61,403 bases of DNA, filler included, from Actinobacteria bacterium UBA7524 (GCA_002478275.1; 3 parts of 3 records of this genome joined end to end with filler, not necessarily neighbours in it); one strand, 5' to 3'. Positions 27,001 through 36,000 are shown, numbered from the whole stretch's first letter. A program made the numbers.

Positions 27001-30000
27001 CGGTCAGCGAGAACGACAGCGGGATGTCACCGGAGCCGGGTGGCATCCGCCACAGCCCGTCACCATCCTGCTCCAGGAATTCGAGCGCCTTCCAGGCGAC
27101 GACGGGATACTCCGAGAACTGTCGAATCTTGAGTCCGCTGTTCAACAACGCGCCGATGATCTCGGAGAGCGGATGCTGCCACACGTAGGAGTCCGCCACG
27201 AAGTCGGCTGTTCGATCCGCGTAGCTGCCGTGCTCCTCGAAGTACAGCGGCTCGCGCGAGAAGTAGGGGTAGCGCACCCTGAGCTCGGGTTCTTCGACCG
27301 TATCGTCGAAGACCGTCAGGAATGGATGGACGTCGATGATGTGGAACACGCCACCCCGAACGAGCCTGGACGCGATCATCCGGGCCCATTCCTCGAGCTC
27401 GGGCAGCCACATGATCGTGCCGTGTGAGGTGAACACGATATCGAACCCCTCGGTCGGCACGGCGTCGGGAAGATCGGTGACGTCGGCCTGAACGAACTGC
27501 ACGGAGAGGTCGAGCTGTGTAGCAATCGACCGCGCCGCCTCCACCGCACGCGAAGAAGAGTCGACCCCCATCACCTCCGCGGCGCCTACGAGCGCGAAGG
27601 TCACCGTGTCGATACCGATGGACTGCACCAGAGCTTCAGGTTAGCGGCGACTTCTTCGCGCATCGAGTTCTCCAGAGCTCGACTCAGGCCACACCATGGT
27701 CATTGAGGAACGGACCGAATGCCTTGTCTCGAACGCTGATGTGATCCACTAACCACTCGCCGAGGAAATCCATCACCTCAAGCGAGAGCATGAGGCGGTC
27801 CTCCTCGAATCCCTGCTTGAAATCGGCCACTTTGGCGATGAACGCCTCGTGCTCGGATTTGTGGGAACCGGCTTCCGGATAACCGTACCTGTCGAAGTAT
27901 GTCTCTTCGGTCGAGAAGTGGATCTTCGTGTAGTCGACGAGTTCGTCGATCGTCTCGCCGAGCATGACCTTGCCACGCCCTTCCGACATTGCGGTGTGCA
28001 GCCTGTTCACGAGATCGACCAGTCCCCGATGCTGCGCGTCAACAGTGCTGACTCCGACCGCCAGGCTCTCGTTCCAAGTAAGGAATTCCATTCCGCCTCC
28101 TCACACACGGGACCGTGCACAGAACACCGAGACTACACGATAGCATCGCCACGTTTCCGGCGTGTTTCCCGGCACCAGATGTCATTGGCCTCAGGCAAGG
28201 CCGGCTGTTCCGCGCGGCGTTGTCGTGCTGACCGCGATGCCTATACTGGACCAAGAACCGGGGAGGTCCCCTTTGGACGACGACAGCGCGCACGTGCCAG
28301 TCACCCTCGAGCACTATGCCCACGTGGAAGGCCCCTTCTACCACGGGACGAAGGCCAGCCTGCAACCTGGCGAACCGCTCGTCCCGGGCTACGGCTCCAA
28401 CTTCGAGGACGGTCGAGTATCGAGGCACATCTACTTCAGCGCCACGATGGATGCCGCGATCTGGGGAGCTGAGCTAGCCAAAGGCGAAGGGACGGGCCGA
28501 ATCTACATCGTCGAGCCCACAGGCCCTTTTGAAGATGATCCCAACCTGACCGACAAGCGCTTCCCCGGCAACCCCACCAGATCCTACAGGACCCAGGAAC
28601 CGCTCAAGATCATGGACGAAGTCAGGGACTGGGAAGGACATCCTCCTGACGTGCTCAAGGCGATGCTGGATCATCTCGCGGAGTTGGAGCGAAAGGGACT
28701 TGCGACCATCGACGACTGAACGACTGTCGGCTCGACGCATGAGTCGAGCTCAAGTCACCCGCCCAGACTGCTCTCGAAGGATCCTTCGATACATGCCGGA
28801 GAGCATGATCGCCAGCGCAAGCAGCAGAGGTCCCCAGGCTACGAAGCCCACCATCGACAGAAGGGTGGAGGTGACGTAGCCGATTCCGCTCGCCAGCGAG
28901 AGCACGCCGAACGCGACAAACGTCCAGCGCAGCGAACGCATGAGGCCGTCGCCTACGAAGAGCGGCGCGACCGCCAGGGCCGCGATTGCGAGGAAGAAGC
29001 CCCATCCCAGCATCTCAAGGGCGAACATCACCGAGGTTGTGGAGTACGGAAGGAATCTGGCCAGGTCGGAGGTAGCCGGTCCGTCCGGCGCTTGACGGAT
29101 CACGGTCAGTTGCACGAAACGGTTGATGCTGACAACGGCAGCGAACAACAGCGCGAAGCACAATCCGACCGTACCGAGGAAGCCGTCTCTGCCGGGGACT
29201 TCCCGGATAGCCGCGAACAGGACCACCAGCACGCTGGCGGTGAGGAACGTGACAACGCCCGCAACAAGCTGAACGCCGGCAGAGGGTGGAAAGGCGAGGC
29301 CTTCGAACGCGAAGTACAACGCAAGCGTCAGCAGATAGACGGCCCCCAATAGCGAAAGGGCCACCGAGCAGAAGAACCCGACCTGCACCGAGCGACGATC
29401 ATCCAATCGAGCCTGCCCTTCGCGGGGTACTTCAACCAAGCAGGACAGATGGGCTGCGGTACGCCGTTCCCCGCACTGCTTCACCCGTTCCCGACTCGCC
29501 GCACCCCTCGATGACTGCTCGATCAGAGTTCAGGTAACGGCATGCCGATGACGGACACCTCGTGTCAGCCTGGACAGGAGATTCACCACGCCCATGATCC
29601 AGCCAACAGGATACGGCAAGATCAGGACACCCAGCCACATGGATTGTCCGCTCGTGCCTCCGATGCCACCTAAGGCGCTCAGGGCGAACATGGCCGCAAC
29701 CCCCAGGACGATCAGGCCGAAGGCCGCCGACCAGTAGAGCAGCACCTGACGCGGCTCCTGGCCGAGGAACATGCCGAGCAGCACCAAGGCACTGCCGACA
29801 AGCACGAGCACGGATCCTTCGAGCGGATCGATCGCGCCGATGAACATCCCTATACCGCCAACGACGACGAGCGAGCGAGACCACCGACTTCGTGTGCTCA
29901 TGTCGCCACCCCCTTTACGGTTGGCGTCTACAAGATGTATCTACCCGCACGATGTGTGGGACTGACGTGTGCTGGTCGGCCGGGCGATTGAGCGTCTCAG

Positions 30001-33000: not shown

Positions 33001-36000
33001 ACTTTGTAACCGCGCGCTTTGAGTATTCTCGCTCACCGTGCGCGATCAGATTGCGGACTACTCCGAGCTCCACGATGCCCACGCGTTCGTCGTCGTTTCG
33101 CCATCCGGCGCCGGCAGCTGAAAGAAGTTGCTCCGCCCAGTCCTCGATTCCGTTGCAACCGACCAGATCCTCCCGACCAAGGAAATCGGCGGCCGCCGCT
33201 TCCGCCAGCGCAAAGTAGTGAAGAAATGCGGACGAGTAGAGGGGCCGCGTGTTCCTGAGGGCGGAGATGTGCTGTTCGAGCGAGACTCGGTAGAGGGTGC
33301 CTTGCGTCTCGAACTCAAGGTTAGCGGCGGTGGGGTTCAGCTGAAGCAACTCTTCCCATCGCATGGCTGCTGGCAGCAACGTCATCCTGCTGCTCTCGAG
33401 AAAGCGAGTGATGCTCGCCCATTCATCCCAGATCAAGCCGACCCCCAGTCGGTCTAACGTTTTGGCGCTTCAGCTGCGCGCCGATACCTGACAGTGTAGC
33501 CGAGCGCTCCGGCGCGTCAGCTGGAAGCGCTTGTTAGCCACGCGACCGACGCCGATGATGCTCCGGATCACGAACCGCATGTAGGCAGGCGACCACGATG
33601 ATCCCGGCGTCATCGACGCGGTAGTACAGACAGTATGGAAAGCGCGGCAGCAAGAAGCGGCGAGATCTACGGTAGACAACGGGATGTGCGGCAGGGAAAC
33701 CGAGAATGGAGTCCACCGCCGAATCCATGGCATCAATGAACTCGTCGCCGAGACCCGGTCGCTGGAGTTCATACCAGTCGCGCGCCTCCGCCACGTCTGC
33801 GACTGCCGATGTAAGGAACCAGGCGCTGCGCACGCCGATCAGCCGCGAAGCCGCCGCTTGGCGTCGTCCCAGGAGATGACTGCGGCGTCGCCGCTGTCGA
33901 GCTCGTCGAGCCTCCGGTCAAGCACCTTCTGCTGCGCCGGAGTGATATGCAACGCCTCGGGCTTGGTGCGGAGGCTGTCCCACAGGTCTCCAATCAAGGC
34001 GAGACGCTCCTCAGGCGCGAGCTTGTTGATGTCGATCGCTGGTGTACTCATGATTCGATGATACGCCCCCAGCCTTACCAGAACCAAACCGGATTCTTGC
34101 TGTGGCTAACGTCTCTTGAGATGAGCCGCGAACGAAGTGAGTCGGCTCGATCTCGGGGTTAGGCACCGCGAATTCAGATACTAACTNNNNNNNNNNNNNN
34201 NNNNNNNNNNNNNNNNNNNNNNNNNNNNNNTTAATTAATTAANNNNNNNNNNNNNNNNNNNNNNNNNNNNNNNNNNNNNNNNNNNNCGGCGTACCCGCCG
34301 AAGGCCTCACCCGCGTGCTGGTCGTAGCGGCCAGCCCCAACGACGAGGGCGCCGTGGTAGGACAGATCGTGATGGTGGTGGATGTCACCGAGGAGCCCGC
34401 CGCTCTCGAGCCGATCAGCCCCGCACTTGCCGTGTCCATCCCCGGCACCACGTACGCCACGCTCGGTGACGCCTATCCGTTCGGCGGGGGAGCCGGCGTG
34501 GCAGAGGCGCTCGCTCGCGCTCGCGATGAGGTGCCGTACCCGTACGTAGCGCTCTCCGCAGACGAGCTCGCCGGGGCCNNNNNNNNNNNNNNNNNNNNNN
34601 NNNNNNNNNNNNNNNNNNNNNNNNNNNNNNNNNNNNNNNNNNNNNNNNNNNNNNNNNNNNNNNNNNNNNNNNNNNNNNNNNNNNNNNNNNNNNNNNNNNN
34701 NNNNNNNNNNNNNNNNNGCCGTGACGGCCGCGGGAGGCATGAACGTCACGCTGCCCGCCGACATGAGCGTGTTCGACGGCAGCGATCTCTTCACGTTCGA
34801 GCGCGGCGAGCAGATGCTGAGCGCCGCCGAGCTGCATGCGGTGCTCAAGGGAGCGCCCTACCTTGCCGATGGAGAACGGGAGAGGCTCGACGCGTCGCTC
34901 GCCGAGGGGCTGGCGGCCGTCCTGGCAGCCGAGCCGGAGTCGCTGACGGGGGCCACACGCACGAACCTCGCAGCGGATGCACTGGCCCGTATAGCGGGGT
35001 CGCTCTAGCGGGAGAATCGAATAGCGGGTTTGCAGGATAGTGTGACGGGATGTAACGTAACTCATAGCGGCCTCAGCCCGTTATCCAGATTATGGAGTGT
35101 TTGATCGTCGTGGCGCGCCCGCAAGGGCGCACCGTGTTGTCCGAGGGAGTGATCTGATGGGGGACGAGTTGCTGGCCACAGATGAGGTCAAGAAGCGTCG
35201 GACGGGCCTTGTTGTAGCGCTGATCGCCCTCCTCCTCGTTGCCGGAGGCACGGGCTTCATGTACGTGACGGGCTTCGGGCCGTTCGCGACGGACGAGCCC
35301 GAAGTGGTGGCGCCCAAGCCCACCGACACGGACGATGCCGAGAAGGCCGACGAGGCCGACGAGGAGACCACCACGCCGGTGGCCAATCCCACCACGGTGC
35401 CGCTTCCTCCCGCTGCCGCCCAGGAGGCGATGTACTGGGAGCAGGTGGCGAGCGCGAGCACCATCGGTGAGCTCGTGAACAACGAGTTCGCCGCGTTCTC
35501 GCTCAGCCAGGTCACCGAGTCGGCCGACCTCGCGAACATCCGCGTGAAGGGCACCTACCGCAGCGGCGAAGAGCTGAACGGGTGGCTGGTGCTCAAGTCG
35601 TACGAGGGCGCGTGGTACTTCTACTCGATCACCGCCGACGGTCACACGGGCACCACGCCCGACCTGGGCGACCCCGATCCGGACGTGCTCAAGGCGATCG
35701 TGGATCAGCAGGCAACCAACCAGGACGTGTACGCATCGATCCTCGACGGCACCTACAACGCGTTCACGGTAGATAAGATCGTGGTAGGCTCCGGCGCCAA
35801 GACGCTCGAGATCACACTCTCGGGTCCTGGCAAGACCGGCGACAAGGGCAAGATCACCACGATCACGAGCGACAGCGGTTCGGGCTCGCAGTGGTTCATC
35901 ACCTCGTTCTCGCAGTAGCCCTCCACTCTGTGGGGCCACTCGCACGATCGGCCGCGCACCTCTCCTCGGTGTGCGGCCGAACACTGTAAGATGATGCAAG

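Follow-up and report, generated by a model that had tools for sequence, protein, structure and literature searches.

The right-hand part of contig C42, positions 30837-34186 of the window (the 61,403-nucleotide stretch analysed here), is very probably the attI-distal end of a chromosomal-integron cassette array in a member of the actinobacterial class Coriobacteriia. The window joins contigs C41 (1-18050), C42 (18151-34186) and C43 (34287-61403), which come from a bin of 60 contigs that is 83% complete and represents a 1.81-Mb genome. A preliminary description of this DNA, from which we take over the order name Anaerosomatales, had proposed integron gene-cassette arrays with canonical attC sites. 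We found that the anatomy of the sites, their covariation, strand asymmetry and spacing, the matching strand of the genes and the presence of a toxin-antitoxin cassette all fit this proposal.

Five attC sites, four canonical and one decayed, lie on the + strand of C42 within 31678-34167. These sites (S1-S5) coincide with the five, one of them weak, that had been placed at C42:13531-16014. A covariance model built solely from S2-S5 (R1) identifies 23 places in the genome at E<=1; 22 of these have E<=0.0025, and the 23rd has an E of 0.58. The places are distributed over C42 (five), C58 (six), C27 (three), C28 (two), C20, C38, C31, C4, C54 and C34, the contigs on which at least 21 sites had been claimed. 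With its filters off, R1 found no further full site on C42, and a search of Rfam gave no match to the sites.

The 22 sites share a hairpin in which 93.3% of 436 cells are paired, against 26-43% in slid controls, and 13 of its 20 pairs show compensatory changes; none of 500 shuffles reached these values. The paired, compensated hairpin of the preliminary description was recovered. The left-core bases C, A, A and C are conserved in 22, 22, 21 and 22 of the 22 sites, respectively, and the right-core bases G, T and T in 21, 19 and 20. Site lengths range from 61 to 111 nt. Canonical attC sites carry an extrahelical T and then an extrahelical G, in that order. Here, a T (18 of 22 sites) and a G (21 of 22) are spaced 7 columns apart on the 3' arm of the modelled strand, and the aligned aadA5 attC shows the same bulged bases, supporting the T-then-G order. 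R1 scores are 79-97 bits on the modelled strand versus 7-18 on the opposite one. The + strand of the window, which had been read from R'' to R', is the recombinogenic bottom strand of the sites, and the cassettes occupy the minus strand.

A second model, R2, was built from this genome's 22 sites. It matches the aadA5 attC of a class 1 integron (31.5 bits, E 1.3e-5), matches that of dfrA14 weakly (12.7 bits, E 0.48; the E with R1 is 0.084) and misses that of dfrA17. Four more R2 matches are on a cyanobacterial plasmid, where each follows a cassette gene next to intI and is on the strand opposite to that gene.

The sites in the window deteriorate leftwards from the contig end. S5 (34101-34167, +), a short canonical site, scores 61.5 bits with R1, and only 22 nt separate the end of its core from the end of C42 at 34186. 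S4 (33449-33542, +; 93.4 bits) and S3 (32783-32875, +; 97.3 bits, versus 18 on the opposite strand) are canonical bottom-strand sites, the latter with its T and G bulges, and like S5 they are intact. S2 (32104-32204, +; 79 bits) retains a right box, GTTGGGC, but its left core is altered to ATC in place of AAC. The predicted single-stranded folds of S2, S4 and S5 (z of -3.5, -3.1 and -3.3, respectively) were equalled by 0-1 of 200 shuffles; that of S3 is only weakly better than shuffles (z = -1.4). S1 (31678-31784, +; 29.8 bits, E 1.2e-5 on the contig) has an intact left box, TCTGCCCAAC, and ATCAGGC in place of a right GTTRRRY, and its fold (z = +0.7) is no better than those of shuffles. At S0 (30837-30859, +), half a site is left: of its two arms only the 3' one is kept, together with the box GTTGGGC (30853-30859). 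S0 scores 23.2 bits with a weight matrix for the 3' arm, ranking 18th in the genome; scores span 18.8-33.9 bits for the 22 model sites and reach 19.6 at most outside the arrays. Across its box and flank, 10 contiguous bases are complementary to the left box of S1, and it lies 13 nt past the stop codon of a 288-aa ORF. S0 closes a sixth cassette, and the array thus extends left to at least 30837. The interval first put forward, 28720-34186, stands from that point rightwards; to the left of it, the R1 scan revealed no recognisable site, with no match better than E 2 across 28750-30530.

The five sites and the half site fit within 3.3 kb and delimit cassettes of 339-835 nt. The first cassette from the contig end holds two genes, an antitoxin gene (33839-34087, minus strand; PF09720 Unstab_antitox, 55.8 bits; TIGR02574, 57.1 bits) which probably starts from the ATG at 34051, and a ParE-type toxin gene (33534-33833, minus; PF05016 ParE_toxin, 35.2 bits against a cut-off of 23). 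Next comes a 189-aa orphan (32867-33436, minus), whose stop codon falls within the S3 R box. It matched no family in Pfam, NCBIfam or PADLOC; a protein atlas places it in unnamed clusters at 0.96, with HEPN_RiboL-PSP at 0.85 as a weak lead. A lipoprotein-like orphan follows (32229-32804, minus; a mechanical ORF of 191 aa, with an ATG at 32783 just outside S3). Its signal and cysteine pattern were judged by eye, and it has no family match even at an E of 10. Between S2 and S1 is the gene of a small membrane protein (31792-32169, minus; mechanical ORF 125 aa), for which no family exceeded the curated cut-off; the first ATG clear of S2, at 32082, would give 96 aa. This complement, a ParE-type pair and three orphans, is in keeping with the description of the cassettes as short ORFs that are mostly orphans or toxin-antitoxin genes.

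The last cassette, bounded by S1 and S0, encodes a membrane protein (30872-31738, minus; mechanical ORF 288 aa). The first codons of this ORF overlap S1; translated from a later ATG, at 31579, the protein would have 235 aa. Its relatives occur at five loci in four other genomes of the 146 searched; all five are beside an attC site, and three are flanked on both sides. In the window, all of the genes that are Pfam-supported or the longest credible ones are on the minus strand. Genome-wide, 14 inferred cassettes have an ORF, and the longest is on the matching strand in 10 and on the other strand in 4. The toxin-antitoxin cassette is among these four, and there Pfam backs the minus-strand genes.

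Farther left are three co-oriented accessory ORFs on the minus strand, each with no recognisable attC: a 244-aa membrane protein (28750-29484), a 123-aa membrane protein (29530-29901) and a 177-aa lipoprotein-like product (29997-30530). None has a Pfam, NCBIfam or PADLOC family. Relatives of the first and third are patchy in the order (9 and 12 of 146 genomes, respectively, including G000), and they sit between attC sites at two of seven loci for the 244-aa ORF and one of seven for the 177-aa ORF. These ORFs may be fossil cassettes.

The flanks of the sites carry what appears to be the footprint of crossover by the integron integrase, IntI. When the nine flank bases outside the core of neighbouring sites, i.e. 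the two ends of one cassette, were compared, the mean match was 6.0 of 9 (13 pairs); within one site it was 4.25 of 9 (16 sites). None of 20000 random pairings of flanks reached 6.0. Complementarity of this kind between neighbours, and not within a site, points to such an origin. Further, the toxin-antitoxin cassette is present with 97-99% identity in contigs of sequencing runs X2, X3 and X6, three unrelated metagenomes that come from other studies and habitats. The likeness stops at 34111/34112, the crossover point of S5, and inside S4; one metagenome contig continues beyond S4 with 526 nt of unlike sequence. Joints with sides shorter than 35 nt were left out as evidence of recombination. The near-identity of these copies speaks for recent movement of the cassette.

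The complete system is found in relatives. IntI exceeds the TIGR02249 cut-off in 96 of 146 genomes of the order, in 23 of 401 sampled Actinomycetota (including G227 and G293, which are flagged unpublished) and in none of 27 genomes from three other families of the same class, counts that reproduce those reported earlier. R1 sites are still more common in the order (128 of 146 genomes); within the family of the genome studied here, the four other members have just 1-2 matches each. In four relatives with closed or long contigs, 78 of 79 R1 matches fall within 20 kb downstream of intI, bearing out the claim that the arrays adjoin this gene; the 79th is weak and, on the G145 contig, falls on the side without the array. 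The four flanks upstream of intI in those relatives had no R1 match. Among 23 loci titled Actinobacteria or Coriobacteriia, 18 have R1 matches, all 91 of which are downstream of intI and co-oriented; the five loci that have none offer at most 1565 nt of downstream DNA. The intI of the relatives thus lies directly upstream of the array and is co-oriented with it, the inverted layout. In relatives, the last bases of the conserved attI core are TGTTAG, at a distance of 100-160 nt downstream of the stop codon of intI, and two contigs from the same family terminate exactly at GTT. The neighbours of intI in relatives include pnp (five loci) and an rlmL-like gene (four loci). The enzymes score 470-476 bits on the full-length TIGR02249 model, and one shares 53.8% identity with IntI1 across 95% of its length. 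In a quick tree, the IntI of the order forms a single clade (support 97, 42 rows), the sister of which (support 99) comprises spirochaete, including Treponema-titled, and cyanobacterial sequences and one locus titled Bacteroidota.

As had been stated, the integrase gene is missing from the bin of the genome studied here: its highest-scoring gene reaches 81.5 bits on TIGR02249, whose cut-off is 265, and tblastn with IntI of the same family returned Xer-like genes only and no remnant of intI. The pnp locus, which precedes intI in five loci of relatives, is uninterrupted in this genome, which also counts against an intact integron here. A possible, if doubtful, explanation is that the lineage lost intI and that the array is a decaying leftover, mobile only when an integrase is supplied in trans. 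The deterioration from S2 to S0 accords with this, as do two near-complete relatives that have sites and no intI, G040 (98% complete, 10 contigs, 17 matches) and G028 (99%, 17 matches). Further, an attI look-alike on C38 (28.0 bits, where true cores score 24-32) has no intI upstream. The lack of the gene here may therefore be genuine. The window itself has no attI; a weaker look-alike, on C54 (21.2 bits), is not beside an intI either, and the background reaches at most 17.4 bits. However, the bin is only 83% complete and in 60 contigs, and three of its contigs end within an attC arm. In relatives, intI is typically at contig ends and so is easily missed in assembly or binning. Moreover, S3-S5 and most sites elsewhere are intact (R2 scores of 53-92 bits), and the toxin-antitoxin cassette is almost identical to its outside copies.

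It is very improbable that C42 or the small array contigs were binned from another bacterium. The small contigs (2.9-5.6 kb) are too short to be placed by composition, C28 has a tetranucleotide correlation of 0.858 where the 5th percentile of 4-kb chunks is 0.876, and C38 carries a conjugation-type coupling-protein gene (Walker motif, judged by eye). C42, however, correlates with its own genome at 0.987, and the same family of sites occurs widely in the order, including closed single-contig relatives in which intI and its array lie within the chromosome. A purD fragment on C42 also speaks against mis-binning: it is 84% identical to a genome of the same family, and of the 18 other relatives in which it has a match, 17 show 63-76% identity and one 52% over part. 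The core genes originally described on C42 call for caution: a lysA-like decarboxylase there is only 30-36% identical to any relative. That the repeats are another intergenic palindrome, a REP-like element or a terminator is scarcely credible: they are hairpins after genes that Rfam does not match, but their AAC/GTT cores, two bulges at fixed spacing, variable lengths, complementarity between neighbours, arrays beginning right after intI in relatives and the recovery of a class 1 attC by R2 all argue otherwise.

The reading as the attI-distal part of a chromosomal-integron array suggests how the locus would work, given established integron biology. When single-stranded, the + (bottom) strand of the window would fold every site into a hairpin, whose paired triplets, AAC and GTT, and unpaired bases, T and G, would mark it for the integron integrase. 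Cutting at the AAC triplet and attC x attC recombination would excise cassettes as circles, to be re-inserted at attI. The cassettes being on the minus strand and intI being upstream in relatives, intI and attI would be expected beyond the right end of C42, in unassembled sequence, and transcription of the cassettes would start from that side. The leftward decay makes it probable that the oldest cassettes can no longer move.

The Vibrio superintegron and the Xanthomonas integrons are examples of sedentary chromosomal integrons. With this type, described in general terms in passages of PMC4889954 and PMC9024848, the present system shares long one-directional arrays of short cassettes, mostly orphans with some toxin-antitoxin genes, lineage-alike attC sites and, in relatives, a chromosomal position beside core genes; it differs in its actinobacterial host, the co-orientation of intI in relatives, its own attC sequence family and the lack of an assembled intI. 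An inverted integron-integrase group occurs in certain Treponema species, according to a passage of PMC4889954. The order shares the inverted layout and the sister relationship of IntI noted above, but its IntI is a separate clade from another phylum, 55-59% identical to spirochaete IntI. As assembled, the array resembles a CALIN, the IntegronFinder category for an attC cluster without an integron integrase (as defined in passages of PMC4889954 and PMC9024848): its several co-oriented attC sites are spaced by less than 1 kb, and neither its contig nor the bin has an intI. Given that C42 breaks so soon after its last core, this label may be a product of the assembly and not a property of the genome. 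The likeness to class 1 integrons lies in the identity to IntI1 and in the aadA5 match; unlike those integrons, this one has no resistance cassettes and no transposon or plasmid carrier, and intI is divergent in class 1 whereas it is co-oriented in the relatives.

To our knowledge, the phylum Actinobacteria has long been held to be almost without integrons, and our literature search found no description of integrons in this order. The window very probably holds the tail of an integron array inside a phylum said to be nearly integron-free, and the complete system is present in the organism's relatives.

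The right end of C42 (window 18151-34186), the contig set between C41 (1-18050) and C43 (34287-61403), carries a real integron cassette array. Five look-alike hairpins were read on the plus strand between 31500 and 34300, their 5' ends reading YYCAAC or CTAAC and then G, and their 3' ends GTTRG. Three are canonical attC sites: S3 (32783-32875), S4 (33449-33542) and S5 (34101-34167), the last with 22 nt from the end of its core to the end of C42. In S2 (32104-32204) ATC replaces AAC, and S1 (31678-31784) has lost its GTT box. When folding as single-stranded DNA was scored against shuffled sequence, z was -3.5, -3.1 and -3.3 for S2, S4 and S5, -1.4 (weakly above shuffles) for S3, and +0.7, not above shuffles, for S1. 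R1, a covariance model of 20 pairs trained on S2-S5 only, gave the sites 79-97 bits on the plus strand but 7-18 bits on the minus strand; thus, the element is strand-specific.

Across the whole source genome (1.81 Mb in 60 contigs, 83% complete), R1 found 23 places at E<=1 and 22 at E<=0.0025, and the contigs concerned are those that the preliminary description had named for attC sites. A scan of C42 with filters off returned no full site beyond S1-S5. The paired hairpin with compensatory changes claimed there was recovered as well: 93.3% of 436 cells are paired and 13 of 20 pairs are compensatory in an alignment of 22 sites, 18 of which are independent of the training of R1, with the alignment fitted to the model and therefore somewhat favoring the structure. 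None of 500 shuffles was as good, and slid partners gave 26-43%. The two extrahelical bases were likewise evident, 7 columns apart in the 3' arm (T in 18 of 22 sites, G in 21 of 22). An Rfam scan of 27000-34186 gave no attC match, only a chance miRNA match (E 0.58).

The T and G bulges stand in the 3' arm of the window's plus strand, and alignment with the aadA5 attC of a class 1 integron puts these positions on the strand opposite the gene. Together, these facts indicate that the plus strand is the bottom, recombinogenic strand and that the cassettes are read on the minus strand. The ORF list and Pfam agree with the earlier claim of co-oriented, mostly orphan or toxin-antitoxin genes: all credible genes are on the minus strand. 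These are an antitoxin gene (33839-34087; PF09720, 55.8 bits; TIGR02574, 57.1 bits) forming one cassette with a ParE toxin gene (33534-33833; PF05016, 35.2 bits), a 189-aa orphan (32867-33436), a lipoprotein-like orphan (32229-32804) and a small membrane protein (31792-32169). The orphan cassette proteins matched no family in Pfam (E up to 10), NCBIfam or PADLOC. An atlas lead (0.85) to the HEPN family for the 189-aa protein, carried by 22% of members, was too weak to retain.

Recognition of known sites was examined in reverse by running R2, a covariance model built from the source genome's 22 sites, on three annotated integrons. It found the aadA5 attC immediately past its gene, on the other strand (31.5 bits, E 1.3e-5), gave a weak 12.7 bits to the dfrA14 attC, and missed the dfrA17 attC. 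On a cyanobacterial plasmid it marked four places, each just 3' of a minus-strand gene upstream of the integron integrase gene, intI. R1 gave the dfrA14 attC 13.7 bits (E 0.084), its sole match in 12.9 kb. The array also retains a footprint of crossover. If cutting and joining occur at AAC/GTT, the outer bases of a left box are expected to be complementary to the neighboring site's right box rather than to that of their own site. Over a 9-base flank, the mean number of matches is 6.0 in neighboring pairs (n=13) and 4.25 in own-site pairs (n=16), and none of 20000 random pairings reached a mean of 6.0. The window's exception is the S2/S1 pair, with 4 of 9, in keeping with the decay of S1.

The window shows clearly how the far end of a cassette array decays. 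The sites worsen leftwards: S5, S4 and S3 are canonical, S2 has a core change, S1 has lost a box, and S0 (30837-30859, plus strand) is a half attC whose 3' arm is kept and whose 5' arm is lost. In a genome-wide scan with a weight matrix of the 3' arm, S0 scored 23.2 bits and ranked 18; on this scale the 22 model sites reach 18.8-33.9 bits and the best place outside arrays 19.6. S0 lies 13 nt past the stop of a 288-aa membrane-protein ORF (30872-31738), and the left box of S1, TCTGCCCAAC, is exactly complementary to the box and flank of S0, GTTGGGCAGA; S1 and S0 are therefore the two ends of one additional cassette. Relatives of the 288-aa protein occur in 4 other genomes of 146 in the order, at five loci, all of which adjoin attC sites, three being flanked on both sides. 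Left of S0, 28750-30530 holds three more co-oriented accessory ORFs and no attC site recognized in the R1 scan. Two of these ORFs have a scattered distribution in the order (9 and 12 of 146 genomes, the source included); at 2 of 7 loci for one and 1 of 7 for the other, the relatives stand between attC sites. The three ORFs may be fossil cassettes. Further left, a rifampin ADP-ribosyltransferase-like gene (28162-28719, plus strand; Pfam Arr-ms, 160.6 bits) is convergent with the last co-oriented ORF and has no neighboring attC. Further attC 3' arms also occur at C58:736-758 (27.5 bits) and C58:3041-3063 (22.3 bits); they are not full sites by the covariance models, and each box is complementary to the left box of the site that follows.

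At the other end of the array, sequence words of 30500-34186 were found in 19 public sequencing runs. One run, possibly the source, has all of them; the other 18, from 12 other studies, have 11-12%. Contigs from three of these runs, X2 (bioreactor), X3 (freshwater) and X6 (soil), cover the toxin-antitoxin cassette (33514-34111), and it is on these three that its spread is judged, with 15 further runs at 11-12% left uncounted. X2 matches 33514-34019 with 4 differing letters and 33993-34112 with a single one, X3 is similar, and X6 matches 33465-34111 with 20 differing letters and 2 gaps. The likeness ends at 34111/34112, which is the S5 crossover, and within S4. The X6 contig continues for 526 nt unlike the window, so its neighboring cassette differs. 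Coverage and ends together thus present the toxin-antitoxin cassette as a unit in other genomic neighborhoods and habitats. Contig joints with short sides (18-34 nt, inside repeated attC arms) were considered as excision products and rejected.

Whether the array belongs to this organism is a question of binning. The tetranucleotide profile of C42 correlates with that of the large contigs at 0.987, a comparison with no power to separate a co-binned close relative and by which the small array contigs are not judgeable. The preliminary description held that C42 links the array to core genes. This stands for a purD fragment, which shares 84% identity with a same-family genome; of the 18 other relatives matched, 17 give 63-76% and the remaining one 52% over part. 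It does not stand for the lysA-type PLP-dependent decarboxylase gene (24574-25941, plus strand), which is no core marker: its best match in 18 relatives, the same family included, is 30-36%, which identifies it as an accessory paralogue. The decarboxylase region is variable and also carries a D12-class adenine methyltransferase gene (23423-24478). As for the other array contigs, C58, C28 and C4 end within an attC left arm, and three contigs start with a common 22-mer: C27 (1-22; three attC sites), C28 (2-23; two) and C31 (1-22; one). Related copies lie inside C15 and C34, and the 22-mer is perhaps one end of an insertion sequence that was left unassembled and breaks the arrays. Runs of N, which are withheld stretches, also occur inside contigs (22952-23041, 34579-34717 and others), one interrupting a cold-shock-like gene on C42; the spacers between contigs read N...TTAATTAATTAA...N.

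The array is formally without an integrase, as had been stated: the best match in the bin to TIGR02249, the profile of the integrase protein IntI, reaches 81.5 bits where the cut-off is 265, and tblastn with a same-family IntI met only Xer-like genes. A search of the genome with the intI and attI DNA of a same-family relative found neither, attI being the insertion site beside intI. The order as a whole is rich in integrons. The earlier count of IntI over the cut-off in 96 of its 146 genomes was reproduced; R1 sites at E<=1e-6 occur in at least 128 of 146 (the best 29 candidates per genome scored), and closed genomes carry arrays of more than 20 sites. The IntI of two relatives match the model along its full length (470.7 and 475.9 bits), and one relative's shares 53.8% identity with IntI1. 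Of 79 R1 matches in four relatives with closed genomes or long contigs, 78 lie within 20 kb downstream of intI (22 in G118, 26 in G093, 25 in G047, 5 in G017); the four upstream flanks hold none, and the one other match is weak and lies elsewhere. Among 80 loci fetched with the same-family IntI, 23 are titled Actinobacteria, Actinomycetota, Actinomycetes, Coriobacteriia or Coriobacteriaceae. Matches occur at 18 of these, all 91 downstream of intI and co-oriented; in the other five, 65-1565 nt of DNA follow intI. An inverted integron-integrase layout of this type has been described for certain Treponema (PMC4889954). By analogy with the relatives, the intI of this genome would stand past the right end of C42. 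We think it somewhat more likely than not that the gene is unassembled; its loss is the less likely alternative.

Conserved surroundings did not locate the gene. Upstream of intI, by subgroup, stand pnp (5 loci) or an rlmL-like gene (4), and at the pnp locus of the source genome the usual neighbors follow and the integron is not there; the tail of the contig with the rlmL-like gene gave no indication of its place. By tblastn, 21 C42 proteins were compared with 20 kb on each side of intI in the four relatives and with two same-family contigs over at most 20 kb; ParE alone matched (33%), and no usable synteny emerged. About 100-160 nt past the intI stop, the relatives have a common motif ending in TGTTAG, with partial copies further upstream. 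Two same-family contigs (L058:1-181 of G145 and L059:1-181 of G144) end exactly at the candidate attI GTT, 181 nt past the intI stop, as expected if different members of the population have different first cassettes. On L058, 10855-11755, some 10 kb from intI in the direction opposite to the array, matches repeated C31 segments at 79-91% identity (4211-5668 and 10464-11888, one running to the contig end), and a weak R1 match (11674-11779) falls within this stretch. A matrix of 12 relatives' attI cores (self scores 24-32 bits) detected attI-like cores in the source genome at C38:2058-2087 (28.0 bits) and C54:6072-6101 (21.2 bits), with at most 17.4 bits elsewhere. The C38 core is followed by a radical SAM/SPASM cassette gene and then an attC, and preceded not by intI but by a gene with a coupling-protein-like Walker motif, as read by eye. 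The C54 core, also without intI, is followed by a 2.7 kb unit ending in an attC; the first bases of the unit complement its own R box, it holds two reverse-strand genes, and the region carries an integrase gene and small DNA-binding-like genes.

Beyond the order, the earlier figures of 23 of 401 sampled Actinomycetota with IntI, unpublished G227 and G293 included, and of 0 of 27 in three other families of the same class hold. Three of the 23 genomes are from the order and 20 from other classes, relatives' class- and phylum-level names being taken from record titles and kinship labels. IntI over the cut-off was seen at loci of other Actinomycetota classes (L067, L069-L073, L066, L068), and two families have it in 6 of 10 and 7 of 21 sampled genomes. 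For a quick maximum-likelihood tree of 100 rows, two Xer proteins of the source genome were joined to 98 IntI from 108 loci (7 duplicates and 3 with stops dropped; HSPs below 280 aa excluded beforehand). The IntI of the order and of the actinobacterial-titled loci form one clade of 42 rows (SH-aLRT 97), which also includes one other-class genome and one Desulfuromonadales-titled locus; its sister (support 99) comprises spirochaete and cyanobacterial IntI and one Bacteroidota-titled locus. Two other actinobacterial families contribute six IntI that group in a clade apart (support 99), with two more falling elsewhere, a separation that suggests several gains, rather than a single one, in the phylum. 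For the order itself, vertical descent is plausible, with the backbone inside the clade largely unresolved in the quick tree.

As far as our literature search went, this integron clade, widespread in one actinobacterial order, is undescribed. Cury et al. 2016 found complete integrons absent from Actinobacteria, described the inverted group and proposed some mechanism hindering integron establishment in such lineages (PMC4889954); a 2021 review lists Actinobacteriota among phyla with integrons detected, without detail (PMC8618304); and a paper on archaeal integrons leaves Actinobacteria unmentioned in the passages searched (PMC9668308). Our search found no description of integrons in Coriobacteriia, Anaerosomat- or OPB41, nor of a chromosomal integron in Actinobacteria, although papers beyond those searched could exist.

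By analogy, the array is expected to work like any integron array. We tentatively suggest, at a little under even chances, that a chromosomal integron with an inverted integrase has long been resident throughout this order of Actinomycetota, passed down mostly by vertical descent and active to this day. In that case, no barrier of the kind supposed would stand between integrons and high-GC Gram-positive bacteria, and the source genome would display the life cycle of an array, with fresh cassettes common to distant habitats at one end as opposed to a frozen, decaying far end. There would also be attI-like sites with single cassettes on conjugative-type and integrative-type elements, a possible exit route for cassettes from the chromosome in Gram-positive bacteria. 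With its conserved layout and its own IntI clade, the order offers a natural system for the study of integrons in a monoderm, high-GC, anaerobic host, and its arrays add a pool of cassettes unseen by resistance-centered surveys.
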